From Escherichia coli (GTDB taxonomy: Bacteria > Pseudomonadota > Gammaproteobacteria > Enterobacterales > Enterobacteriaceae): 64,000 nt of DNA. The stretch lies in the NCBI RefSeq assembly GCF_024502345.1, contig NZ_JALDNN010000001.1, one strand, 5' to 3'. The position numbers and the translations under genes are program-made. Under the pieces are notes generated by a model. The model saw only the letters and a list, made by a program, of their open reading frames with translations, was not told the origin of the DNA and searched no databases. Shown in pieces: positions 995-40,806 of this stretch (positions are counted from its first letter, which is position 1; every line of letters starts with the position of its first letter).

Positions 995-1092
995 TAAGTC
1001 AGGTATAAATATAAGTGACATTGCCCAAGAATTCAAAACCTCGCGGCAAACCATTTTAAGAGCTAAAGCAAAAAATCAGACACCTGATATAT
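995..1092 (+). pseudogene. C-terminal HTH fragment of a recombinase/DNA-binding protein truncated by IS1
   Basis: Open frame running straight out of the IS1 right end: ...[31 protein letters not shown]. Resembles the C-terminal HTH of serine recombinases; no start codon of its own. Confidence 0.3.
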
Positions 1093-1191
1093 AAAAATAA
1101 TCTCGGTGTGAGATTCCTTACGTTTTCCAAGCCCCCCTTCCTAGCCTTAAATGGAAAGATACTTCTAATTATAGAATTTATATATCTTACC

Positions 1192-1359
1192 CTACGGTAG
1201 GGCTGGCCATTCAATATCCGGTGCAGTTGATGTATCAACACGGTTCAGCAACACCCGATACTTTTTCCAGGCTTCCAGCAACAAGGTTTCTTCCTCCGTT
1301 GCGATCTCCAGATCCACAGCATCCTGAAGCGGCGCTATATGCTCACTGGCTACCTGCAT
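1192..1359 (-). CDS. Hypothetical small acidic protein (55 aa), divergent from the CI-like gene
   Basis: [58 protein letters not shown]; below the 60-aa cutoff of the ORF track; sits in the cro position but shows no obvious HTH. Confidence 0.3.
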
Positions 1360-1439
1360 CAGGCTGTTTTTTGTTTCTTCCGCCTACCTGTAATACTGAT
1401 TGCGAGTTGAATGGTTTGATTTGTCATTATCAATTCCTA

Positions 1440-1537
1440 TTGGTATTGCAATGAATGAATAATAGCAATGCGTATTAATCCAAGCAATAGCAAAACGTGT
1501 TTTGACCATCAATACGCAAGCGTATAAATTAAAACTT
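1440..1537. promoter_or_regulatory. Operator/promoter region upstream of the CI-like gene
   Basis: AATAGCAAT at 1461-1469 and AATAGCAA at 1486-1493; palindromes ATTGCAAT (1445-1452) and ATACGC-AA-GCGTAT (1512-1525); TTGACC (1502-1507) followed by an AT-rich -10-like stretch ending ~9 nt before the ATG at 1538, suggesting a leaderless or near-leaderless transcript. Confidence 0.45.
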
Positions 1538-2230
1538 ATGAAAAAAGAAACTCTTGCTGATCGCTTAAACCTAGCGATGGAACAATCTGGAATGTCTCAA
1601 GGCGCTCTTGCAAAGGCGTCTGGCGTAGCTCAACCCACAATCTGGAGACTGACAAGCGGCAACGCTCGCGGCTCAACAAAAATTGTTGAAATAGCTAATG
1701 CATTGGGTGTTCGAACAGAATGGCTCTCATCAGGCATAGGCCCGATGAGAAATGACGGTCAACAATCAGGGAAGCCTGCTGTCAGCCATTCAAAATACTT
1801 CAAGATTGACGTTCTTGATATAGAAGTGAGTGCCGGGCCGGGAGTCATCAACCGTGAGTTTGTAGAAGTTCTACGCTCGGTTGAGTACTCGTTTGACGAT
1901 GCTCGTCACATGTTCGATGGTAGGAAGGCAGAAAATATCCGCATCATTAACGTACGCGGTGACAGCATGTCAGGAACGATCGAACCAGGTGATCTGCTGT
2001 TCGTTGATATCACGGTTAAATCTTTCGACGGTGATGGTATCTATGCGTTTCTGTATGACGACACCGCCCATGTAAAGCGCCTGCAAATGATGAAGGATAA
2101 GCTACTGGTTATCTCTGATAACAAGAGCTACTCACCGTGGGACCCGATCGAGAAAGACGAGATGAACCGGGTATTCATATTCGGTAAGGTTATTGGGAGC
2201 ATGCCGCAGACGTACAGAAAACACGGATAA
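1538..2230 (+). CDS. CI/LexA-type phage repressor (N-terminal XRE HTH, C-terminal S24 autopeptidase)
   Basis: 230 aa from MKKETLADRLNLAMEQSGMSQGALAKASGVAQPTIWRL (HTH) to ...NVRGDSMSGTIEPGDLLFVDI...AHVKRL (S24 Ser in GDSM and Lys in VKRL). The ORF track offers an upstream ATG at 1502, but that lies inside the promoter-like region. Confidence 0.85.
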   Translation: MKKETLADRLNLAMEQSGMSQGALAKASGVAQPTIWRLTSGNARGSTKIVEIANALGVRTEWLSSGIGPMRNDGQQSGKPAVSHSKYFKIDVLDIEVSAGPGVINREFVEVLRSVEYSFDDARHMFDGRKAENIRIINVRGDSMSGTIEPGDLLFVDITVKSFDGDGIYAFLYDDTAHVKRLQMMKDKLLVISDNKSYSPWDPIEKDEMNRVFIFGKVIGSMPQTYRKHG

Positions 2231-2312
2231 TCAGCCGCGTGTTGATGAGGCTTTTGGGTAATACGCTGAAGAAAATACCTTATAAAAAATAACATTACGG
2301 GAAAGGCAAAAA

Positions 2313-2576
2313 ATGAGTAATAAAACACTTGTTAAAAAATCAAATAACTGTGTCGATGCATACGCCGACGCGTTTGGCTACTCTTCGTTTGGTGACGGCT
2401 CTCAGCGCCTAGGTTCAATTTCTTTTTTTCATAATGTAACTGAATGGCCTGTTGATGAAAGTGACGATGTTGAGAACATAAAGTACAACATTGCAACCAT
2501 TAGAATGCCCGAAGAATTGATGCTTAAATTGGCTGACTTCATTCGCGACCAGCATGACAAAGCTAAAACAAACTAA
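2313..2576 (+). CDS. Hypothetical protein (87 aa), prophage cargo gene
   Basis: ORF with GGAAAGG ribosome-binding site 7 nt upstream; AT-rich compared with neighbours; no family recognised. Confidence 0.5.
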   Translation: MSNKTLVKKSNNCVDAYADAFGYSSFGDGSQRLGSISFFHNVTEWPVDESDDVENIKYNIATIRMPEELMLKLADFIRDQHDKAKTN

Positions 2577-2588
2577 TCGTAATTAATT

Positions 2589-3032
2589 ATGAAACACGAT
2601 TATTACGAAGCTCCAAACCTAAATGATAAAATTGCAAAGGCGGCAAAATCATTTTGTTTGCACTCCAGTGCGTCTTCCCAGCTAGCAGGTATATCTGGAA
2701 AAAGATGGGACATGCTACAATCAAGTGGTAGCAGTGGGTCTGGGAGTGATAACATGCCTGAAAAAGTTGCAAAACTGGAGTCCGATGTTGCTCATATCAA
2801 ACGAGACGTTGATGAACTTAAAACAGACGTTAAAGCTATCGACAAAAATATGATAACTATTCTTGCACGTCTGGACTCTATAAAAGAATCCTTAACAAAC
2901 AAGCCATCAAGTGATGCTGTCGATAGAAAGATTTCAGACGCAAAGCTTGCGGTATTGCTTGGTGTTCCAGCAATCATCGCTGCAGGAACAGGACTTTATA
3001 AGCTATCAATGTACTTTTTCTTTAGTGCTTAA
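2589..3032 (+). CDS. XhlA-like coiled-coil protein with C-terminal transmembrane helix
   Basis: C-terminal 92 aa MPEKVAKLESDVAHIKRDVDELKTDVKAIDKNMITILARLDSIKESL...AKLAVLLGVPAIIAAGTGLYKL: heptad-like coiled coil plus one hydrophobic helix, resembling phage hemolysin XhlA. The ATG at 2589 has no ribosome-binding site; the ATG at 2754 has GGGAG 7 nt upstream and may be the true start. Confidence 0.5.
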   Translation: MKHDYYEAPNLNDKIAKAAKSFCLHSSASSQLAGISGKRWDMLQSSGSSGSGSDNMPEKVAKLESDVAHIKRDVDELKTDVKAIDKNMITILARLDSIKESLTNKPSSDAVDRKISDAKLAVLLGVPAIIAAGTGLYKLSMYFFFSA

Positions 3033-3106
3033 GAAAATGCTCGCACCCTTGCATTAGGTAAAGCGATTTTTCATTCCCCATTACCCTCGCTCTTAACCAA
3101 TCATCT

Positions 3107-3136
3107 AAACCCGGCCACCGTGCCGGGTTTTCTTTT
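3107..3136 (+). terminator. Rho-independent terminator after the CI/cargo operon
   Basis: aaaCCCGGC-caccgt-GCCGGGttttctttt: GC stem, 6-nt loop and T-run, just downstream of the 3032 stop. Confidence 0.6.
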
Positions 3137-3261
3137 GCCCTCCCCTCATCACACACCGTTCAAAAAACCACCACGACCTCACTTCAGTTATCGCTATGCG
3201 ATGCAAGTCACAAAATTAATTCTTTTTGCTATCAAACATTTAATATCAAAACACATCAACT

Positions 3262-3308
3262 AATAGCAATAAGTATTGATATCACCAATAGCAATAGCTA
3301 TTATCACC
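3262..3308 (+). promoter_or_regulatory. Second operator set with pL-like promoter
   Basis: AATAGCAAT at 3262-3270; palindrome AATAGC-AATA-GCTATT at 3287-3302; TATCACC direct repeats at 3280-3286 and 3302-3308; TTGATA (3276-3281), 17-nt spacer, TATTAT (3299-3304) on the + strand. Confidence 0.4.
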
Positions 3309-3497
3309 ATATCGCAACAACACAACGATACGGCAACCACCTGATTCACCGTTGCGATGACCGCTTAGATCCGCAGCTTGAATTTCAGCAGGCTTCGGGG
3401 AGTGCGAGGGATGAAACGGACGCGTGAACGTCGGTGTGACCAGCTGAAATCAACTCAACATTTCATACCTTAGTCGCTTCAACGAGGCGGCTTAGTT

Positions 3498-3788
3498 ATG
3501 ACAACCGGCGGCCATCCACCGCCTGAATACGCGCAGAAGTCTTTATATGTTCAGCAGCCCAGCTTACGGGCAGGAGTTTTTATGGTTCATCAACATTACG
3601 GAACGCAGACCGTTAATCGCGGTGCGGTCATGCCAGGAATGCTGGTCAAACGCAAAGATGGTACCTGGACTGCATCAGCTAATTTACGCGGACGACTTTA
3701 TCTGCATCGCGGCATTGAGCGCACTTATACCCGTGACTTGCTCGTGGAAGTTTTTCTCGACGGACGCGGCAACGGTCTGAATCACTAA
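3498..3788 (+). CDS. Hypothetical prophage protein (96 aa)
   Basis: ORF with GAGG about 10 nt upstream; no family recognised; an internal start MVHQHYG at 3582 is also possible. Confidence 0.35.
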   Translation: MTTGGHPPPEYAQKSLYVQQPSLRAGVFMVHQHYGTQTVNRGAVMPGMLVKRKDGTWTASANLRGRLYLHRGIERTYTRDLLVEVFLDGRGNGLNH

Positions 3789-3863
3789 TCCCCTTTCCTG
3801 TTTTCCGAATCAGCCTGGCATTCCGCGGGCGATTTTTTCACAGCCATTTTCAGGAGTTCAGCC

Positions 3864-4148
3864 ATGAACGCTTATTACATTCAGGATCGTCTTGAGGCTC
3901 AGAGCTGGGCGCGTCACTACCAGCAGATCGCCCGTGAAGAGAAAGAGGCAGAACTGGCAGACGACATGGAAAAAGGCCTGCCCCAGCACCTGTTTGAATC
4001 GCTATGCATCGATCATTTGCAACGCCACGGGGCCAGCAAAAAAGCCATTAGGCGCGATCACTTTCATCTACTCCGTTACAAAGCGAGGCTGGGTATTTCC
4101 CGGCCTTTCTGTTATCAGAAATCCACTGAAAGCACAGCGGCTGGCTGA
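3864..4148 (+). CDS. Hypothetical prophage protein (94 aa)
   Basis: [31 protein letters not shown]... with AGGAG 9 nt upstream. Confidence 0.5.
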
Positions 4149-4175
4149 GAAGATAAATAATAAACGGGAGGCGGT

Positions 4176-4367
4176 ATGCACAAAGCATCTCCTGTTGAGT
4201 TAAGAACGAGTATTGAGATGGCACATAGCCTTGCTCAAATTGGAGTCAGGTTTGTGCCAATACCAGTAGAAACAGACGAAGAATTTCATACGTTAGCCAC
4301 ATCCCTTTCACAAAAGCTGGAAATGATGGTGGCGAAAGCAGAAGCAGATGAGAGAGACCAGGTATGA
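4176..4367 (+). CDS. Hypothetical prophage protein (63 aa)
   Basis: ORF MHKASPVELRTSIEMAHSLAQIGVRFVPIPVETDEEF... with GGGAGG 5 nt upstream. Confidence 0.5.
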   Translation: MHKASPVELRTSIEMAHSLAQIGVRFVPIPVETDEEFHTLATSLSQKLEMMVAKAEADERDQV

Positions 4368-4377
4368 CAACCACTGA

Positions 4378-4656
4378 ATGCATTTTTCTGGCAGCGGGCT
4401 TCATATTCTGTGTGCTTATGCTTTCCGTTTCCATGACCTCAGACACACCTGGGCAAGCTGGCTGATTCAGTCAGGCGTCCCATTATCAGTGCTTCAGGAA
4501 ATGGGCGGATGGGAGTCCATAGAAATGGTTCGTAGGTATGCTCACCTTGCGCCTAATCATTTGACAGAGCATGCGAGGAAAATAGACGACATTTTTGGTG
4601 ATAATGTCCCAAATATGTCCCACTCTGGAATTATGGAGGATATAAAGAAGGCGTAA
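4378..4656 (+). pseudogene. Tyrosine integrase, C-terminal fragment only
   Basis: ...[46 protein letters not shown]... carries the integrase catalytic box (HxLRHT, trailing Y) but only ~80 aa remain; ends 16 bp from the 3' end of argU, the expected attachment site. Confidence 0.8.
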
Positions 4657-4671
4657 CTGATTGAATTGTAA

Positions 4672-4748
4672 TGGCGCGCCCTGCAGGATTCGAACCTGCG
4701 GCCCACGACTTAGAAGGTCGTTGCTCTATCCAACTGAGCTAAGGGCGC
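4672..4748 (-). tRNA. argU: tRNA-Arg (anticodon UCU)
   Basis: Reverse complement reads GCGCCCTTAGCTCAGTTGGATAGAGCAACGACCTTCTAAGTCGTGGGCCGCAGGTTCGAATCCTGCAGGGCGCGCCA (77 nt, anticodon TCT, CCA end). Confidence 0.95.
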
Positions 4749-5623: not shown

Positions 5624-5720
5624 TATTAATTATAATTGATCATAAATATCGCATCCGCTTTCGCCGGTGATGCTGCCAACTTACTGATTTAGTGTATGAT
5701 GGTGTTTTTGAGGTGCTCCA

Positions 5721-5996
5721 GTGGCTTCTGTTTCTATCAGCTGTCCCTCCTGTTCAGCTACTGACGGGGTGGTGCGTAACGGCAAAAGCACCGCCGGACA
5801 TCAGCGCTATCTCTGCTCTCACTGCCGTAAAACATGGCAACTGCAGTTCACTTACACCGCTTCTCAACCCGGTACGCACCAGAAAATCATTGATATGGCC
5901 ATGAATGGCGTTGGATGCCGGGCAACCGCCCGCATTATGGGCGTTGGCCTCAACACGATTTTCCGCCATTTAAAAAACTCAGGCCGCAGTCGGTAA
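5721..5996 (+). CDS. insA: IS1 InsA
   Basis: Protein identical to copy 1 InsA. Confidence 0.95.
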
Positions 5997-6418
5997 CCTC
6001 GCGCATACAGCCGGGCAGTGACGTCATCGTCTGCGCGGAAATGGACGAACAGTGGGGATACGTCGGGGCTAAATCGCGCCAGCGCTGGCTGTTTTACGCG
6101 TATGACAGGCTCCGGAAGACGGTTGTTGCGCACGTATTCGGTGAACGCACTATGGCGACGCTGGGGCGTCTTATGAGCCTGCTGTCACCCTTTGACGTGG
6201 TGATATGGATGACGGATGGCTGGCCGCTGTATGAATCCCGCCTGAAGGGAAAGCTGCACGTAATCAGCAAGCGATATACGCAGCGAATTGAGCGGCATAA
6301 CCTGAATCTGAGGCAGCACCTGGCACGGCTGGGACGGAAGTCGCTGTCGTTCTCAAAATCGGTGGAGCTGCATGACAAAGTCATCGGGCATTATCTGAAC
6401 ATAAAACACTATCAATAA
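5915..6418 (+). CDS. insB: IS1 InsB
   Basis: Protein identical to copy 1 InsB. Confidence 0.9.
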
Positions 6419-6600
6419 GTTGGAGTCATTACCCGAAAAATGAAGCTTTCAATCTCAGCGACCTCAGCGACGGTGCGCCTCACCTTCGCAAGAGGTCGCT
6501 TCACGCGATAAATCTGAAACGAAACCTGACAGCGTGCCCCGCTTCTGACAAAATAGGCGCATCCCCTTCGACCTACGTAACAGATGGAATCCTCTCTCTG

Positions 6601-21025: not shown

Positions 21026-21067
21026 GTCATACCACTCGCCTGATTATTTTTAGCTATGTTGGATTTT

Positions 21068-21094
21068 GCCACGGTTTATACCGTGGCTTTTTTT
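21068..21094 (+). terminator. Rho-independent terminator after allE
   Basis: GCCACGG-tttata-CCGTGGC followed by TTTTTTT. Confidence 0.6.
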
Positions 21095-21110
21095 GTAGTA
21101 AATTCAGGTA

Positions 21111-21135
21111 AAAAAGATGCGAAATAAATCGCATC
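21111..21135 (-). terminator. Rho-independent terminator after glxK
   Basis: On the minus strand GATGCGA-tttatt-TCGCATC followed by TTTTT. Confidence 0.55.
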
Positions 21136-21152: not shown

Positions 21153-22298
21153 TCAGTTTTTAATTCCCTGACCTATTTTAATGGCGCAGGCAATATTTCG
21201 CGCGCTGTTGAAGAGATTGGTTTCACCGCTGGCGAGCACTTCGGCTAAAGGTGCCAGACGTGGCAAAATGCTGAATACCGCATCAATGCCGTACTGGTGT
21301 ACCACTTCCACGCCATCACCCAATACGCCAGCAATCCCAATCACCGGTACATTAAACTGCTTCGCCACCGACGCAACGCCCAGCGGCGCTTTACCGCCTG
21401 CCGTTTGCGAGTCAATGCGCCCTTCCCCGGTGATCACCAGTGCTGCCCCCTGCACCGCCTGCTCAAGGTTGACCGCACGCAGTACAATCTCAATGCCCGG
21501 TTTAATATCCGCATTGAGAAATACCGCCGCCGCAATACCCATACCGCCCGCAGCGCCGCCGCCCGCCATCTGGCAGACATTAATTTCAGTTTGCTGTTGT
21601 AAAACACGGGCGTAATTTTGCAGCCCCTGTTCCAGCTCTTCGACCATTTCCGGCGTTGCCCCTTTTTGCGGGCCAAACACCGCCGCCGCGCCGCGTGCCC
21701 CTACCAGCGGGTTATCAACGTCACATGCTACTTCAATATGGCAATTCGCCAGACGCGGATCGCATTCATCCATCTCAATGCTTGCCACGCGCGCTAAATT
21801 ACCGCCGTTAGCCACCAGCACCTGACCGTCGGCATCAAGGAAACGCACACCGAGCGCCTGCGCCATGCCCATACCACCGTCGACCGTCGCACTGCCGCCA
21901 ATGCCGAGAATAATATGGCGAATGCCGTTATCCAGCGCATGACGAATTAACTCCCCCGTACCAAAACTGGAGGCCAGCAACGGATTACGCTTTTCAGGCG
22001 CGACCAGCATCAGGCCACTTGCTGCCGCCATCTCAATCACCGCCGTTTTCCCGTCGCCGGTAAGGCCATAAAAAGCATTCACTTTTTCGCCCATCGGCCC
22101 GCAGACTTCAAGCGTCACGATGTTGCCGCCCGTCGCGGCGACCATCGCATCCACCGTTCCTTCGCCGCCATCCGCTATCGGCAAACAGATATAGTTCGCA
22201 TCGGGAAAGAGGGTCGAAAACCCGGCTTTAATTGCCTGACAACATTTTTCTGCACTTAAGCTCTCTTTAAAAGAGTCTGGCGCAATGACAATCTTCAT
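21153..22298 (-). CDS. glxK: Glycerate 2-kinase
   Basis: 381 aa from [23 protein letters not shown]... Confidence 0.9.
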
Positions 22299-22319
22299 TA
22301 TCAATCCTTTTTCAACAAA

Positions 22320-23627
22320 TTATTCGATACGTTCCCACGGAATAAGGTTATCCATAAGAACAGCCAGTAAAATCCCGACCAATAAGCCGTTACTGAGCAG
22401 AGGACGAAGCGTTAATGGAAGGTCTTGCAGATACACAGGCGGTAATGCCATTAAAAATATGCCGACAAATAACGGCAATGCGAGTCGATAAATATTGCGA
22501 GCGGTAAAGGTTATTTGCTGGCTAAACACCAGCGCGGAAAAGAGTAAAGGCAGATAAGAAACCAGCATGACCGCGCTACTCACGGGTAAAGGGATACTGC
22601 AAAACAGTCGTGTGAGTGCCGGAACCAGCGCCACCAGCAGGCAAATAACGCTGCCATAAATAAACGAACGCCGCGTGTAATCGCCTGTCTGGGTTAATAA
22701 ACCAATGGATGAAACAAACGGTGAAAATGGAATTACCGCCAGCGGTACGGTTATCAGCGTCATAAATCCGGTCGCCACAAAGCTGCGACGATAACGCGTA
22801 TTTCCCGCGCCCTGCTGCGGATAAAAAACATCCGTGCCCCGAATCGCACCGTAGGTATTGCTGATATTCACCAGACCTGTAATCACCGCCGTCAGAATAA
22901 TTCCCGGCGACAAAGCACCGCCACTGCCGAGCGGGAACCACTGCCAGTGCAACTCACCGGAGAGCGAATGCGAAGAAGGAAAGCAAAAGTACCACAACAA
23001 CCAGCCGGTTATCGTACCGACCAGCAGGCCATAACGGGCAAAACGTTGCGGCAGGAAAATAATCATCGCCAGTACCAGGCACATCACCGCCACCGAGAGC
23101 GCGAACGGTGGTAACTGAATTTTAAAATTTGGGTCGGCTATGCCAAACGGCAGCCCGAGCATACCTTTGAAAAAGATAGTGGTCAGCTGTGCGCCCAGCA
23201 TCAACATAAACAAGACCATCACCGACGGCGTAAATAACCGTGCCAGGCGATGGCCTAATCCGCTAAAACCAATCAACATCGTCAGCACGCCGGAGAGCGC
23301 AATCCCCACTGCCAGGCTGGTGGCGATATCGTTGATCGGTGTCCCGCGCGATGCTTCGCCAAGGGTGATAGTTAGGATGGTTCCCCACCACAGGCCCCCC
23401 GGCCCTTCCATAATAGCGCGACGATGGCCACAGAACGCCTGAGCGAAGCAGGCCAGTGCGGTAGCAAGAAAAGCATATTGTGTGAGTGTAAGCAGGCTAC
23501 TTTGCGGCAACTGAAAAGCAGAAAGTAGCGTAGGAGGAACCACAACCGTGTTGCAAAAAATAAAGAAAAACCACTGAAATCCTGATAACAGGCTTTCGCG
23601 GCTGACTGCAAAATTGAACATAAACAC
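22320..23627 (-). CDS. ybbY: Nucleobase (purine) permease family transporter YbbY
   Basis: 435-aa polytopic membrane ORF; start uncertain by a few codons. Confidence 0.8.
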   Translation of the reverse strand: MFMFNFAVSRESLLSGFQWFFFIFCNTVVVPPTLLSAFQLPQSSLLTLTQYAFLATALACFAQAFCGHRRAIMEGPGGLWWGTILTITLGEASRGTPINDIATSLAVGIALSGVLTMLIGFSGLGHRLARLFTPSVMVLFMLMLGAQLTTIFFKGMLGLPFGIADPNFKIQLPPFALSVAVMCLVLAMIIFLPQRFARYGLLVGTITGWLLWYFCFPSSHSLSGELHWQWFPLGSGGALSPGIILTAVITGLVNISNTYGAIRGTDVFYPQQGAGNTRYRRSFVATGFMTLITVPLAVIPFSPFVSSIGLLTQTGDYTRRSFIYGSVICLLVALVPALTRLFCSIPLPVSSAVMLVSYLPLLFSALVFSQQITFTARNIYRLALPLFVGIFLMALPPVYLQDLPLTLRPLLSNGLLVGILLAVLMDNLIPWERIE

Positions 23628-23677: not shown

Positions 23678-24882
23678 TTACTGCTGATGTTTAAGGATAA
23701 ATTGACCTTTCGGCGCAACAGGGAAGCCCTGTTCGATGTCGTAAATCACATCACCACGTAAGATGGTTTTCGTGATACGCGCGCCAATGGTACGGCCAAC
23801 ATACGGGCTGACTTTGTGGCGATATTCCAGATCGTCATTGGTAAGAACATAGCTGCTATTCGGCTGAATGAAGACGAAGTCGGCATCTTTTCCTGGGGCG
23901 ATACGGCCTTTTTGCTGCAGACCGAAAATATCTGCTGCGTTAGTCGCCATTAATTTGCCGAACATTGGCAGAGACATTCCGCGTTTCTGTACCGCTTCAT
24001 CGAACATCACGTCCATACAGTTTTGCAGACCGGCAATACCGCCCCATGCTTCCATGATGTTGCCGGCTTTCATTTCCGGAGGGCATGGTGAGTGGTCGGA
24101 AACCAGGCAGTCGATTTCACCGTTAAACAGTTTTTCCCACATGCCTTTCTGGTTTTCCAGATCGCGGATCGGCGGTGAACACTTCGCCAGAGTACCAATT
24201 TCTTCGAACTGATCGGTATCCAGTACAAAGTAATGCGGGCAGGATTCACAAGTAACGTCCTGACCTTCCTGACGTGCACGAGTCACTTCCTCAACACCTT
24301 CCGGGCTGCTGATATGGCAAATGTGCAGACGGCAACCGGCAACTTTCGCCAGATACAGCACGCGGCGAATCGCTTCCACTTCGGTAAATACCGGACGCGA
24401 AGCCACATAGTCATGGGCAGTTACGCGACCTTCACGTTTCGCTTCTTCGCCCAGTGCGTCACAGATCAGCGCGTTTTCGCAGTGCACCAGCACCGGCTGC
24501 CCCAGTTCGCCCAGCTTCTGCGCACCTTTGAAGAACTGCCAGTCGTTTACATCACGGAAGTCGTTGTCGATACCGCGATCGCCACAGGTCGCAACGAAGC
24601 ATTTGAAGCCGACAACGCCCACTTCATCCAGCTCATGCAGACGGTCGATGTTGTAAGACACCAGGCCACCGAGTTGTGCCGCATCGATAGTTAGCTTGCC
24701 TTTAGCGGCATCGAACTTCAGTTCAATTGAAGCGCGGTCAACCGTTGCAGGCAGCTGGTTGAGCGGCATTTCGATCATGGTGGTGATACCACCTTTTGCC
24801 GCTGCGCGAGTACCGGTTTCATAACCTTCCCAGTGGCTACGACCCGGTTCAGAAATATGGGTGTGCGCATCAACCATGCCCG
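23678..24882 (-). pseudogene. allB: Allantoinase allB, 3' portion (interrupted by IS903)
   Basis: Encodes allantoinase residues from ...[21 protein letters not shown]... to the C-terminus; the 5' part of the gene lies on the other side of the IS. Confidence 0.85.
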
Positions 24883-25939
24883 GGCTTTGTTGAATAAATC
24901 AGATTTCGGGTAAGTCTCCCCCGTAGCGGGTTGTGTTTTCAGGCAATACGCACGCTTTCAGGCATACCTGCTTTCGTCATTTTGTTCAGCGCTCGTACCA
25001 GGGCCATAGCCTCTGCAACCTGACCATCGTAGTCACGCAGTGTCAGTGAACCCCCGAACAGCTGTTTTACCCGGTACATCGCCGTTTCCGCTATCGAGCG
25101 ACGGTTGTAATCTGTTGTCCATTTCCACCGCGCATTACTCCCGGTCATTCGCTGATTAGCCACTGCACGGTTACGGTCTGCATATTCACCGGGCCAGTAA
25201 CCCGCACCTTTTCGGGGAGGGATAAGCGCGCTGATTTTCTTACGCCGCAGTTCATCGTGACATAGCCGGGTATCGTAAGCGCCATCGGCGGCGGCTGACC
25301 TGATTTTCCGGTGGGTTTGCCGGATTAACCCGGGGAAGGCCTCTGAGTCCGTAACGTTGTTCAGCGACAGGTCAGCGCAGATGATTTCATGTGTTTTACT
25401 GTCAACGGCGAGATGCAGCTTACGCCAGATACGGCGGCGTTCCTGGCCATGCTTTTTGACTTTCCACTCGCCTTCACCGAAGACCTTCAGCCCGGTGGAA
25501 TCAATTACCAGGTGTGCGATTTCACCCCGGGTGGGCGTTTTGAAACTGACATTAACCGACTTTGCCCGCCTGCTGACACAGCTGTAATCCGGGCAGCGTA
25601 GCGGAACGTTCATCAGAGAAAAAATGGAATCAATAAAGCCCTGCGCAGCGCGCAGGGTCAGCCTGAATACGCGTTTAATGACCAGCACAGTCGTGATGGC
25701 AAGGTCAGAATAGCGCTGAGGTCTGCCTCGTGAAGAAGGTGTTGCTGACTCATACCAGGCCTGAATAGCTTCATCATCCAGCCAGAAAGTTATGGAGCCA
25801 CGGTTGATGAGGGCTTTATTGTAGGTGGGCCAGTTGGTGATTTTGAACTTTTGCTTTGCCACGGAACGGTCTGCGTTGTCGGGAAGATACGTGATCTGAT
25901 CCTTCAACTCAGCAAAAGTTCGATTTATTCAACAAAGCC
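24883..25939 (-). mobile_element. IS903-type insertion sequence (IS5 family), 1057 bp
   Basis: Terminal inverted repeats GGCTTTGTTGAATAAATC at 24883-24900 and 25922-25939; direct 9-bp duplication CCATGCCCG at 24874-24882 and 25940-25948; end sequence matches the IS903 ends known from Tn903. Confidence 0.9.
24939..25907 (-). CDS. IS903 transposase
   Basis: 322-aa ORF with DDE transposase features; the true start may be downstream of the first ATG. Confidence 0.85.
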   Translation of the reverse strand: MKDQITYLPDNADRSVAKQKFKITNWPTYNKALINRGSITFWLDDEAIQAWYESATPSSRGRPQRYSDLAITTVLVIKRVFRLTLRAAQGFIDSIFSLMNVPLRCPDYSCVSRRAKSVNVSFKTPTRGEIAHLVIDSTGLKVFGEGEWKVKKHGQERRRIWRKLHLAVDSKTHEIICADLSLNNVTDSEAFPGLIRQTHRKIRSAAADGAYDTRLCHDELRRKKISALIPPRKGAGYWPGEYADRNRAVANQRMTGSNARWKWTTDYNRRSIAETAMYRVKQLFGGSLTLRDYDGQVAEAMALVRALNKMTKAGMPESVRIA

Positions 25940-26105
25940 CCATGCCCGGCGAAACCACCAGACCAGACGCATCCATAACTTCTTTTGCATCGCCCAGATC
26001 CTGACCGATAGCAGCAATTTTCCCGCCTTTAACGGCGATATCTACAACGCGAGCTTCGTTTTCTAAAATAACGGTGCCGTTTTTAATGATTAAATCAAAA
26101 GATAT
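25940..26105 (-). pseudogene. allB: Allantoinase allB, 5' portion; start codon position reads ATA
   Basis: Encodes (I)[53 protein letters not shown]; the codon where Met1 is expected is ATA (plus-strand tat, 26103-26105). Confidence 0.8.
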
Positions 26106-26164: not shown

Positions 26165-27619
26165 TTAACCTATGGTTTTTTGCTCTCCTGTTTTTTCTGC
26201 TGTTGTACGTTTCTTTAATAAGGCGTAGGCCGCAAAGGCGACGATGACGCCGACAAACCATGAAACACGCGATAACGGTTCCATTAAGGGAATAAACTTA
26301 CCGCCAAGAGATAAAATAACGGCGACCAGAGTTACTGAAAACGCGGTGAGGTTAAAACCGTTATCGTAATATTTATAATCGCCAGGTGCGGTGTACAGTT
26401 CATCAAGATTAATTTGCCCACGCATCACCACAAAATAATGCGCCATCATGACACCAATTACCGGACCAAGCATTCCGCCGATAATATCGAGGAACAGATA
26501 AATACTGTCCTGATTTTCCATTAATTTCCACGGGCAGATCAGCAGGCTGATAATACTGGCAATCAGTACGCCGTTTTTATAAGTCAGTTTCGTCGGTGCA
26601 ATAGCGGCAATCTGATAACCGGCAGGAATAATATTACCGGTGGCGTTAGTGGAGATAGTCGTCATCAGAATAACCAGTACCGCAAAGAACGAGGTGAACA
26701 AGCTGTCCCAACGCTGAACAATATCCAGCACGTTCCAGGTATCAGCGCCGTAATGAATACTGGCTCCGGCAATAATACATACCCCCGCGACCGCAAACAG
26801 AATATAGGCCACAACTAAACCCAGCGTTTGCCCCAGCGCTTGCTCACGAAACGAGTGGGCGTTTTGCGTAAAGTCGGATGCGCTCACCGCCGGTGCCGCC
26901 CAGACCGCAACTACCGCGTTTATCACCACCAGGAACAGGAAGCCACTGTTTTCTGCTTTCTGAATACCGCTCGGAATGTAGTCAAAGATTGGACCGAGCC
27001 CGACCAGCGAAATCGCCCAAATCGCCATACCGCCGAAAACGATATAGATGCACGGGTTAAGAATGGCAGTGAATTTATTTAAAACTTTGCCACCGCCAAA
27101 ACCTATACCAACGTTGACCAGCCAGAAGAGTAAGAAAGTAATTAAGCCCGGTAGAGAAAGCCCTAACAGCGTGAAATCACCACCGAGAGTTAAAAATCCC
27201 GGCCAGATTTTGCCAATCAGAATCAAGCAGGCCAGTGACCCCGCGTAACATTGCAGGCCAAACCACATAATGGCAGCAATACCGCCTCTTAATAATCCGG
27301 GAAACAGTGCGCCACGTACGCCGTAAGAAGCACGCAGGATCATGGCAAACGGTACGCCGTATTTACTGCCCGCAGCGCCGTTTAATACCATTACCGCGGC
27401 AATGAAAAAGGCGCTGAGGATAATTGCCAGCATAATACTAAAGGTAGACAAGCCGAGAATAAAAAAGCCGCCGACCATCACATAATTGGGAACGTTATGA
27501 ACCGAACCCATCCATAAGGTAAAATAGTTAAATGTTTTCCAGGTCCGCTGGCTTTGCGTTTTCGGCAATAGATCTTCGCTATAGCCGCGTTGCTGGAATA
27601 GTTTTCTCTGATGTTCCAT
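26165..27619 (-). CDS. ybbW: NCS1-family allantoin permease
   Basis: 484 aa, MEHQRKLFQQRGYSEDLLPKTQSQRTWKTFNYFTLWMG... Confidence 0.9.
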   Translation of the reverse strand: MEHQRKLFQQRGYSEDLLPKTQSQRTWKTFNYFTLWMGSVHNVPNYVMVGGFFILGLSTFSIMLAIILSAFFIAAVMVLNGAAGSKYGVPFAMILRASYGVRGALFPGLLRGGIAAIMWFGLQCYAGSLACLILIGKIWPGFLTLGGDFTLLGLSLPGLITFLLFWLVNVGIGFGGGKVLNKFTAILNPCIYIVFGGMAIWAISLVGLGPIFDYIPSGIQKAENSGFLFLVVINAVVAVWAAPAVSASDFTQNAHSFREQALGQTLGLVVAYILFAVAGVCIIAGASIHYGADTWNVLDIVQRWDSLFTSFFAVLVILMTTISTNATGNIIPAGYQIAAIAPTKLTYKNGVLIASIISLLICPWKLMENQDSIYLFLDIIGGMLGPVIGVMMAHYFVVMRGQINLDELYTAPGDYKYYDNGFNLTAFSVTLVAVILSLGGKFIPLMEPLSRVSWFVGVIVAFAAYALLKKRTTAEKTGEQKTIG

Positions 27620-35199: not shown

Positions 35200-35580
35200 G
35201 TGTCGAATCCTTATCCAAAACAAGAGGTAACTCTCATGCTTCATACTGCCAATCCCGTCATCAAACACAAAGCCGGTTTGCTCAATCTGGCTGAAGAACT
35301 CAGCAACGTATCAAAAGCCTGTAAAATCATGGGCGTTTCGCGTGATACGTTTTATCGTTACCGCGAACTGGTCGCTGAAGGCGGTGTGGATGCGCAGATT
35401 AATCGTAGTCGCCGCGCTCCTAACCTTAAGAACCGTACCGATGAGGCAACTGAACAGGCTGTTGTTGATTACGCCGTCGCTTTCCCGACACATGGTCAGC
35501 ACCGGGCCAGCAACGAGCTGCGTAAACAGGGGGGTTTTTATCTCCGACAGTGGTGTCCGTTCTGTCTGGTTACTCCATAA
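35200..35580 (+). pseudogene. ybbD: IS481-family-like transposase, N-terminal fragment
   Basis: 126-aa ORF with HTH ...KACKIMGVSRDTFYRYRELVAEGGVDAQINRSRRAPNLKNRTDEATEQAVVDYAVAFPTHGQHRASNELRKQG...; the DDE catalytic domain is missing. Confidence 0.6.
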
Positions 35581-35620
35581 CCTTGAGAATCTCAAAAGAC
35601 GATACTGAACAAATTTTATC

Positions 35621-36122: not shown

Positions 36123-36584
36123 TTACTCTGCACAAGCATCAGGCAATCCAGCTCCAATATTTGTTATAAAATAATGCGTAACATTAATTTCACCAACAAA
36201 AAAAAGGTTTACACCATCCCCTTGCCCTGGTATCTTACCATATTTACACCACACTTTTTTTGTATCTGGATCATTCTTTGATACGATTTTCGCCACTTGT
36301 TCCCTGGCCCTCACTGTCAATGTTTTCTTAAACCTACCCCCATCATCATTTGTTAGGGAAAAATAAGAAAAAAAATAATCATCTTCTACATTTGTGTATA
36401 TTGATATATCCACCGCTACGTGCGGAAAAAAATCTGGGAGCCATGTAAAAACTCCATCATTTTCTGGTATTGCCATATAGTTTATGTAATGTTTACTTAC
36501 AAGAGATTCATCTTTGTATAAATAAAGATAAGTAATTACGCATAAAACAACAATGATTATAATAGCAAAAATAAATATTATCAT
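36123..36584 (-). CDS. Putative Rhs immunity protein (N-terminal transmembrane helix)
   Basis: AT-rich ORF just downstream of the rhs stop; MIIFIFAIIIIVVLCVITYLYLY...; the longer version starting at 36614 would overlap rhs by 20 nt. Confidence 0.6.
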   Translation of the reverse strand: MIIFIFAIIIIVVLCVITYLYLYKDESLVSKHYINYMAIPENDGVFTWLPDFFPHVAVDISIYTNVEDDYFFSYFSLTNDDGGRFKKTLTVRAREQVAKIVSKNDPDTKKVWCKYGKIPGQGDGVNLFFVGEINVTHYFITNIGAGLPDACAE

Positions 36585-36594
36585 CTTTGATAGA

Positions 36595-39500
36595 TTACTT
36601 GAGATAGCCAGCATCTTGTAAAGCCTTTATCGTTTTTTTATGCTCTGGATTAATATAATCACTACATCTATCTGAGCAATCTGTTGTTGATGGACATGTC
36701 AACCCATGGTCATTTACAGCCAAGTCTTTTTTATTATCTTCAATCATTTCAGAATGGGATAGCTTTACTTTTCTGCCGTACATACCGAACAGATTTAACC
36801 CGTAATCTCTAATCTCTTTTTCATAACCCAGCCCTTTCGCCGATCGGCTAACACCAGCGTCATTTAATTTAGACACTCGACAAAATGCCATACAATGAAA
36901 AAATTGATCAGTCCCACCTAAATTTAATCTCTTCATATCTTCATAAGTATCAGATAATATATCCCATGCTCTTTGATGGTTTAGTTGATCTTTTCTTCTT
37001 ATTAGCGCTACATCTGCGGGACTTAACCCTAATGGATCAATACCATTCACCGGATTCAGCGGATACGCATACAGACTCCATCCCCCCTCCAGCCCTATCG
37101 GGTCCTGAGTGATATACCGCCCCTGCAACGGATCGTAGTACCGGTTCCGGTTGTAGTACAGCCCCGACTCCTTATCATACTGCTGCCCCGGCAGCCGGTA
37201 CGGCTGGTGCAGGTGATGCGGGTTCTCCTCATTAAGCTGGTTGCCCCATTCATCATATTCCGCGCTCCACGCCGTATTGCCGTCTTCACTGATAAGCGCC
37301 AGCGGCAGGCCCCGGTGGTCACAGTGATAAAGATGTATTTTTCGCTCAGGCAAATAAACCGGCTCTATCTGTGCCGCCAGCCGCTCCACCGTCAGCCCGC
37401 ACTGCGCAAGCCACTGGCGGCTTTCACTGCTCACGCAGTTTGCCCGGATTTCCCCCTCCAGCCTGTCCAGCAGCCCCACCAGTTCAGCCGGGAACACCAC
37501 ACCGTGACCGTCTTCGCTCCCTTCCTGCTGTAACTTCTCCGCCAGGCTGCGGCACTGCGCTTTCTCCCGTTCACCGTTGTCTGTTTCGATGCGGATGAGC
37601 GGCGCGAAGCTCCCCGGCAGGTAGACCGTCTGGATTCGCGTGGTATCTGTCTGTACCGTCGTCAGGCGGTCTCCGTCCCAGCCGTACCATGTCATCTCCG
37701 GTTTACGCGACAGCGACATCCACCCCGTCAGGTCACGCTCCCGCCGCCATACCCGTTTCGCCATTCGCCGTCCCAGCGGGTCGTAGAGGTAGCGGCTCTC
37801 GACCAGTGGCTCGCCATGCTGTATCCGCGTGTGGAACACCAGGCGGTGCTGGCTGTCGTAGTGGTAGTGGTGGGTCCGCTCGTCGTCCGTCCGTATCACA
37901 CCCGTCGGGATGCGGTCCGTCTTCTCCGTCAGTCTGCCGTATTCATCATAGTGGTAAACATAGTGCGCATCCTCTGCGATGCGGTTATCCGGCCACGCCG
38001 TGAGCGTGCTGTCCGGGTGTAGCTCCGGGTCCGGCAGGCGGTTTCCCGCCGGGTCGGTGGCATACGGGATGCGGATGTCCAGGTCCGGTGCGAGGGTGCG
38101 CACGCTCTCCAGCCTGCCCGTGGCACTGTAGCCGTATTCCCGCGTCTGTCGCGGACCGCTGATGCGCACCAGGTCGCCGTTGTCATTCCACCCGTAGTCA
38201 CGGTCATACACCAGGCTGTTCAGGTGCTGGCTCTGTAACTGGCCTGCGGGGGTGTATGTGCTGGTCAGTTCATATGCGGCATTACTGCCTGCCATGCTGC
38301 CAAAGCTGCGCACCGTCTCCCGGTGCAGGCGGTCGCGCGTGTACTCCAGCAGCGGCGTGTCGCCGAGCTTCATGCCCGCCAGATAACCGCTGCCATACGT
38401 CAGCCACTCCACCGGCGGCAGGCTGTCCGGCGTGACGCGGTTTGCCAGCCCCTGTTCGTTGTAGGCGTGCGTTGTCTCATGCTGCCACAGCAGTTCCCCC
38501 GTCTCCGGGTTCTCCACCGTCTGGCGTTCGCCGGTCAGGCGGCCTTTATCGTCATAGCCGTAGTGGACCGACACGCGGTGGCCTTCACTGGTATGGCTGA
38601 GGGTGGTTAACCACCCGTGCTCATCATACTGCCACTGCTCTGCCGGGTCGCCGTTCACCGTCCGGTGCGTGATGCGGTCCGACGCATCGTAGTGCCAGAG
38701 GGTGATAAGCCCCTCATCCTCACTCTGCGTGAGTTTTCCGGTCAGGTCATAATGATAACGTTGCGTCCGCCCGTCAAAGCCGCCCTGCTGTACCAGCCGG
38801 TCCAGCGCATCGTAGCTGAAGTCGCTGTGACTGCCGTTCTCGTTAGTCAGACTGATGACACGTCCGGCAGCATCGTACTCCATACTGCGCGTCAGCCCGC
38901 CCTGCGTGGTGCTGACCGCCTTTCCCCACGCATCGTACTGTGTCTCGCTCCGGTTGCCGTCCGGGGTGATAACGGCAGTCAGGTCGCCTGCGGCGTTGTA
39001 CTCATACTGCGTTTCACGGCCCTGTGCGTCTTTCACCGAGGTTAACCGGCCACGGTTGTCATAGTGGCGGTAAAGGCTGATACCTTCCTCGCGGTGAACC
39101 GCCGTCATCTGGCCGAAGCGGTCGTATTCATAGCGGGTCTGGTAGCCCGAGCAGTCAGTGAACGCCAGCAACTGCCCGTAGCGGCTCCACGTCATCTGCC
39201 GGGTGCTGCCCGTCGCATCCGTTGTCGTCGCCGGTAACTCACTGTGCGCGTCATCGTAGCGGTAGCGTACTGTCTCCCCGCTGCGCGATGTCTCCGATAC
39301 CAGCCTGCCCGGTTCATCATATTCCCGGCGGCTCTCCAGCCCGTCCGGGTACACCACCGCCGTCAGCTGGTTCCCGTCGTTATAGTAAAATTTCGTCTCC
39401 CGCCCGTCCGGTGTGGTGATGTCCGTGATATCGCCGGACACCACATTCAGACCGTACTCTGTCCGCCGTCCCGCCGCGTCCGTCTGCGCCGTGAGCCTTC

Positions 39501-40806
39501 CTGCCGCGTCATACCCGCTGCGCGTGACGCTGCCGTCCGCCAGTTCTTTTTTCACCACCCGTTTCAGCCCGGCCCCGCCTTCTGTATGCAGCACCTCACG
39601 CCGGTTCAGGCTGTCGGTGACGGTGATGCGGTCCTGCTCATAAAGATAGCGGTAGCTTAACCCTGCCGGGTTCAGTTGCTCCACCACCCGCCCCGTATCG
39701 TCGTAGCGGTAGCGCATCTCCGGCCTGCCTGCATAACGGTGCCCCACCATCCGGCCCCGGTATTTATCATCGTAAGTAAAGTGGCGCATCTGCGTACCGC
39801 TGCGGTCATACACCGCCGCCAGCTCACCGCGTGGCGTCCAGTCGTAGCACACCAGTGGCGCGGCAGGTAAATTTTCCGGGTATTCCGGGTCGTGCATCAG
39901 CCACACCGCCGAAAGACGGATACCGCTGTCAGCGCCGTATTCCGTACCGGGCAGTGTGTCGGGGAAGGAAGGAGCTGAGAGAGGGCGGGGACTGTCAGGG
40001 GAAGATAACGAAGCGGTGTGCGGTTTACGGGCCTCTTCCGCCCGCTGTGCCTGTGTGGTCAGTACCAGACGGAACTCCCGCCCGGCACCGTCCGTCACGC
40101 CGGTGATTTCCCCGGCCAGGTCACCGGCGGCCTCACGCCGGTACGCCAGCGTCCGCCCGAAGCGGTCCGCCATCCCGGTAAGCACCCGGTACGGCGGCAG
40201 CGGCGCTGGCAGTAAGTCCTCAGCACCCGGCACCCGCTCAGACCACCCCAGTATCCACCACGGCCCCTGTGCGCTGTTGGTCGCCAGGTAAAGATGCGGG
40301 CTTAACCGGATATCCGGTGGCAGCGACGCCCACAGCCGTGCCAGCGTGTGGCCGTCCGGCTGCGCTGCCTTACCGCCACGCACCAGCCACATTGACTCAC
40401 TGCGGCTGTACACCGCCTCCCCCGGCAGCAGCGGCTCAAAGTGAATGCTCCGCCCGCCGTTGTCGTTGAGTATCAGTGCATCATCGCGTATCTGTAAGCG
40501 GATATCAGAAGGCGCTTTCCAGCCGGGGCCGAAAACGCCCACCGGTGCAGGCGTCTTCGTCCGGTAGCTGCTGTAGGTGCGGGAGAGAATGAACGGCAGC
40601 GGGCCGGGCAGCGCAAGGTCCGTCTCGCCGGGCTGTACTTTTGCACCGAGCAGCGGGTTCACCGGGTTGCCCGAGGTCATCCCGCCCGGACACACCGAGC
40701 ACGCCACGCCAGTTGGCGCGCCAATTCTTACACCTGCCGAACCCTGGACAATGGGACCGCCATACTGAGTCATATCTCCCTGACGCGCCGCTGGTTTTCC
40801 GCTCAT
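36595..40806 (-). CDS. rhsD: Rhs-family polymorphic toxin (YD-repeat protein)
   Basis: 1403 aa; N-terminus [25 protein letters not shown]; many YD repeats; DPxGL motif ([12 protein letters not shown]) followed by a 141-aa AT-rich C-terminal tip (about 36598-37020). Locus equated to rhsD by position. Confidence 0.9.

Follow-up and report, generated by a model that had tools for sequence, protein, structure and literature searches.

The allantoinase gene allB of this Escherichia coli strain is interrupted by a complete copy of IS903B, and its start codon reads ATA instead of ATG. Very probably the insertion is a recent second hit in a gene that the start-codon change had already damaged, and not the sole cause of an allantoin-negative phenotype. 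We analysed a stretch of 64 kb (the window), which is colinear with the K-12 chromosome from fimZ to beyond fetA in reverse orientation. The insertion is real, simple and recent. As a kind of event it is an ordinary gene knockout by a well-known insertion sequence (IS) and is already known as such; all that is added here is the older lesion in the start codon, and with it a different account of the cause.

Structure of the insertion in allB

The element, delimited from its sequence and from its match to annotated copies, lies on the minus strand at positions 24883-25939. Its length of 1,057 bp agrees with the approximately 1,057 bp of the IS903 group, within the IS5 family. It is bounded by 18-bp terminal inverted repeats, GGCTTTGTTGAATAAATC at 24883-24900 on the transposase-downstream side and its exact reverse complement at 25922-25939 on the transposase-upstream side. 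The two ends match at 18 of 18 positions and complementarity ends at base 19. This 18-mer occurs at two places in the 64-kb window, one per strand, where shuffled sequences predict 0.01, and no further match was found elsewhere in the window with two mismatches permitted. A composite transposon or a rearrangement was considered and rejected, since no second copy of IS903B is present in the window, and the sequences on either side of the element adjoin each other in K-12 and in the close relatives.

The transposase ORF (24939-25862, minus strand) is intact and encodes 307 aa from a GTG start at 25862, while the RefSeq annotation gives a 322-aa form from a TTG at 25907; exact copies of both forms are present on at least 1,000 contigs of public sequence data. 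Against the NCBIfam profile NF033579 (IS5 family transposase) the protein scored 357.6 bits, where the cut-off is 140, and the match covered all 289 positions of the profile. A residue check located D121, D193 and E259, the putative catalytic triad. Judged by its intact ORF and its two intact ends, this copy appears compatible with transposition activity.

Identical transposase proteins are named "IS5-like element IS903B family transposase" in RefSeq, and over its 1,057 bp the DNA of the element shows 100% identity to a copy annotated IS903B on the Citrobacter plasmid NZ_CP026234. The copy in E. coli ECNB21-M121 is likewise 100% identical over query positions 309-1370, a range that spans the element. 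By these sequence matches the element, for which the original prediction had given the name IS903, is the IS903B isoform of that group, the isoform name being the one that RefSeq gives to identical copies. It is very common on plasmids of enterobacteria; at least 5,000 plasmid records carry it, 3,032 of them from Klebsiella, and the copy in allB may have arrived from a plasmid.

Each end of the element adjoins a direct copy of CCATGCCCG, at 24874-24882 on the left and at 25940-25948 on the right. K-12 and the IS-free close relatives have one copy of this sequence, and nine nucleotides would match at fixed positions by chance with a probability of about 4e-6. The repeat finder returned 10 nt, CCATGCCCGG, because the element has G as its first base and a G also follows the right copy; since the ends of the element are known, we set the duplication at 9 bp. 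On alignment with K-12 the two flanks overlap by these 9 bases, at allB nt 158-166, and are otherwise contiguous. The insertion point is therefore at codons 53-55, splitting the protein between VVSPG and MVDAH. The predicted 1057-bp element with perfect 18-bp inverted repeats and a 9-bp duplication was thus confirmed to the base at 24874-25948, and the K-12 alignment upheld the predicted position within allB.

The motif WTTYA-N9-TRAAW is the preferred target of the IS903 group, though not a required one, and a mismatch to it leaves group membership unaffected. The site in allB reads atcaa-N9-gcgaa and fits the motif at 5 of 10 positions, about 3.5 being expected by chance.

Both parts of allB lie on the minus strand. 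The 5' fragment (25941-26105) holds codons 1-55, and the 3' fragment (23678-24882) holds codons 53-453 and the stop, with its longest ORF starting at Met55 (24877). If translated, the head would comprise 55 AllB residues followed by Gly-Leu-Cys, ending at a TGA inside the inverted repeat of the IS. We found no Shine-Dalgarno sequence in the IS end upstream of the tail ORF at Met55. In-silico removal of IS903B and one repeat copy restored an allB ORF of 453 codons, which differs from K-12 AllB by five amino-acid substitutions and the start codon. Given Met1, the reconstructed protein is a common allele, for which the index lists 1,076 blocks of the collection. The identity of the gene as allB, which encodes allantoinase, a cyclic amidohydrolase, is also clear from orthology and synteny: the order allW-allB-ybbY-glxK is kept within gcl...ybcF, and the cluster is colinear with K-12. 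As it stands the gene cannot be regarded as functional, as it starts with ATA and the IS interrupts the ORF after codon 55.

We propose the following sequence of events. In a commensal-type E. coli lineage, an earlier change of ATG to ATA would have brought initiation at chromosomal allB down to about 0.02-3% of the AUG level. One intact IS903B would then have inserted at codons 53-55, its transposase making target cuts staggered by 9 bp, with repair of the gaps giving the duplication of CCATGCCCG. This would have divided the gene into a head of 55 codons and a tail of 399 codons without a ribosome-binding site, so that no allantoinase would be made.

The allB start codon and IS-free relatives

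Comparison with K-12 and with the population identified ATA in place of ATG as the start codon of allB (26103-26105, minus strand). Neither the Shine-Dalgarno sequence, AAGGAG, nor its spacing has changed. In order to see how widespread this change is, we searched the 57-nt start context of allB in complete E. coli genomes, the region being kept in 5,316 of 5,426. The exact context with ATA was present in one of these 5,316 genomes, and 5,314 differed from it at a single position; in K-12 this position belongs to the start codon. In frame, the next ATG comes at codon 44, from which gene callers give a 410-aa product.

The only complete genome with the ATA start is that of E. coli 2013C-3252, in which ybbY is frameshifted as well. 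We rejected it as a relative, its identity being only about 98%, and for the same reason its ATA must have arisen independently. Its ATA-start allB is annotated by PGAP as full length.

Close relatives were traced by exact-protein look-ups. The insertion site is empty in E. coli ccpm3961/AN61 (2 mismatches in 9.5 kb), a strain isolated from a healthy preschooler (PMC7133007). It is also empty in GCA_050022275.1 (4 mismatches in 17.5 kb) and in the Logan assembly of ERR14375843 (0 mismatches). As these near-identical relatives have an empty site, the IS903B insertion is the latest event at the locus. All three share the ATA start, which is therefore older than the insertion. The claim that this strain is allantoin-negative through one lesion thus did not hold, because an older lesion, the ATA start at 26103-26105, is present in relatives free of the IS; the earlier reading had overlooked both this codon and a probable polarity on ybbY/glxK.

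Initiation at AUA reached 1-2% of the AUG level in one set of reporters and 0.02-3% in another (bioRxiv 10.1101/063800). Since AUA initiates at so low a level, about 0.02-3% of that of AUG, allB was probably already crippled before IS903B arrived. It may nevertheless have kept some function, as an AUA start still yields some protein. AllB is needed to stabilise the AllW transporter, and its Km is very high, above 15 mM (PMC10163214); without AllB, both the uptake and the hydrolysis of allantoin should fail.

These data also bear on the reading in which the ATA start gave enough allantoinase until the IS arrived, so that IS903B would be the single functional lesion. Initiation at AUA is measurable, the Shine-Dalgarno sequence of allB and its spacing are intact, the remainder of the ORF is an unblemished common allele, and PGAP calls a full-length AllB in another strain with ATA. 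Against this, 5,314 of 5,316 complete genomes keep the ATG, and the output from AUA is no more than 0.02-3% of that from AUG. A drop of 30- to 1,000-fold is unlikely to be harmless, given an AllB Km above 15 mM and the stabilising role towards AllW. We therefore regard a single functional lesion as unlikely, and prefer two successive lesions with the start codon first. Accordingly, the proper annotation of allB in this strain is that of a pseudogene bearing two lesions, a finding whose importance beyond strain annotation is small. We predict that the source strain, like its IS-free relatives, can use little or no allantoin as a source of nitrogen under anaerobic conditions. The case also illustrates how an obvious IS lesion can mask an older and subtler start-codon change, which becomes visible only by genome comparison.

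The allantoin operon and other insertions in it

The remaining genes of the cluster were all predicted to be intact, and this was borne out. Sixteen genes (allS, allA, allR, gcl, hyi, glxR, allW, ybbY, glxK, allE, allC, allD, fdrA, ylbE, ylbF and ybcF) aligned end to end with the K-12 proteins at 98-100% identity; no gaps or internal stops were found in them, and all 16 are full length and start with ATG. In the operon allW-allB-ybbY-glxK (PMC10163214), the intact allantoin transporter gene allW (ybbW; 26165-27619, minus strand) lies upstream of allB. The intact ybbY and glxK (21153-23621, minus strand) lie downstream, promoter-distal to the IS. The transposase is transcribed in the minus direction, as are allB and the gcl-glxK operon. 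Polarity of IS903B on ybbY-glxK is plausible, because the element sits promoter-proximal to these genes and in the same orientation. GlxK activates AllB (PMC10163214). A consensus scan of IS903B for promoters and terminators returned no more sites than shuffled sequence did.

Downstream of the operon, identity changes sharply at 21097-21117, in the intergenic region between allE and glxK, which also holds a match to the STnc480 sRNA at 21032-21098. A metagenome contig has 99.95% identity to the window on one side of this point, falling to 97.9% beyond it, and the alignment with K-12 is broken at this point too. A boundary of recombination may lie at 21097-21117, or the intergenic segment may be variable.

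Only two records covered the whole query, those of E. coli CFS3273 and NH-21, and both carry IS903B at other sites, in the neighbouring allW. Going by their sequences, these two insertions are independent of the event in allB. We rejected the idea of an insertion hot spot, since the three IS903B sites in the operon have no sequence in common and their fit to the target motif is at chance level; the two allW sites fit WTTYA-N9-TRAAW more poorly than the allB site. The orientation is identical in all three, and three cases are too few to interpret. Other elements were also seen in the cluster: an IS with an rve-type integrase (IS30-like) in allW of LR536431, an IS1 in allW of CP026803, and an IS5 at the 3' end of allD in a metagenome contig whose identity to the window is 99.8%.

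One could argue from such cases that loss of allW-allB is selected in some gut E. coli, the insertion being one of several convergent adaptive knockouts. Independent lesions do cluster in the allW-allB module (IS903B, the rve-type IS and IS1 in allW). To these may be added the IS5 at the allD 3' end in the metagenome relative, and 2013C-3252 with its ATA start and its ybbY frameshift. However, such cases are few among genomes that number in the thousands; 5,316 of 5,426 genomes keep the start region of allB, the fit of the insertion sites to the IS903 motif does not exceed chance, and two hits in one gene resemble relaxed selection. We consider convergent adaptive loss quite improbable. It is very doubtful, too, that the lesions here and in the other lineages mark repeated adaptive loss of allW-allB from E. 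coli of the human and animal gut, with selection against the import or catabolism of allantoin in some niches rather than neutral decay. A late insertion into an allB already damaged at its start codon is the explanation that we retain.

Recency, neighbouring features and comparison with known insertions

The insertion was found in none of 5,426 complete E. coli genomes. Its junction was absent from GTDB representative genomes and from JGI metagenome contigs, and an exact-protein look-up of the 399-aa C-terminal AllB fragment gave no other carrier. A literature search on allB together with IS903B yielded nothing relevant. The absence of the junction from the 5,426 genomes and the empty site in relatives support the simple and recent transposition that had been proposed from the sequence. 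It is scarcely credible that the insertion is an assembly artefact, or that it arose in laboratory culture and is unfixed in a natural population: the junction is known only from this window and from no other genome, read-set assembly or metagenome contig searched, but a precise 9-bp duplication at exact IS termini is beyond an assembler, both flanks are unique sequence contiguous in relatives, and an origin in culture would still be a true transposition. The insertion is thus a private and very recent marker, which could separate this isolate from its near-identical relatives.

Two 20-kb stretches of the window were compared with the 5,426 complete RefSeq E. coli genomes, and the best match was 98.6-98.8%, whereas drafts and read-set assemblies reached at least 99.97%. 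The source lineage seems, on these identities, to be without a close complete reference genome. A Shigella origin, suspected from the IS1 copies and the best identity of 98.6-98.8%, was rejected, since the near-identical relatives are commensal E. coli. The insertion also shows activity of IS903B, best known from resistance plasmids, in this commensal-type lineage.

The window contains two IS1 copies (227-994 and 5666-6433), each of 768 bp, 100% identical and in direct orientation. The second occupies the position of the whole sfmACDHF fimbrial operon of K-12 (approximately 5.9 kb), which is absent here. The junction between folD and this IS1 is shared with GCA_050022275.1, whose contig ends 77 bp into the IS1. 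Because a close relative has the same junction, the IS1 event at folD preceded the arrival of IS903B.

At argU, the position of DLP12, the window has the eroded remnant of a lambdoid prophage (995-4471), with tRNA-Arg(tct) at 4672-4748 (minus strand). The remnant includes an ORF for an S24/LexA-like repressor (1502-2230) and an Rfam match to the IS009 sRNA (1226-1426), and it aligns to other E. coli genomes in patches and with deletions. A Rhs element at 36123-40806 encodes 1,403 aa, of which residues 1-1258 match the K-12 RhsD core at 92.9%, and the C-terminal tip differs. The ORF of 163 aa that follows it, a match to the NCBIfam 'hypothetical protein' PRK14710, is possibly an immunity gene. 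In ylbG (35236-35605) two overlapping K-12 alignments in different frames imply a frameshift near codon 100.

IS903 was originally identified as the arms of Tn903. The element in allB is the same as IS903B/IS903 (IS5 family) in its length, its 18-bp inverted repeats, its 9-bp duplication and its 307-aa DDE transposase. There is no difference at the level of the element, 'IS903' being the group name and IS903B the isoform used in RefSeq. The closest counterparts by location are the allW insertions of CFS3273 and NH-21, where the element, the operon and the orientation to transcription are all the same, with 9-bp duplications, 0.7-1.1 kb away. They differ from the present case in the gene and sites hit (target-site duplications TGGAGATAG and GGGTTAAGA), in belonging to unrelated strains, and in a flank identity of 95-99%. 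In mechanism the insertion resembles mgrB::IS903B of colistin-resistant Klebsiella pneumoniae, where the same IS has entered a chromosomal gene by simple insertion. The mgrB insertions are selected by antibiotic exposure and have a clinical phenotype, unlike the insertion described here, which struck a dispensable allB with a prior loss of its start codon.
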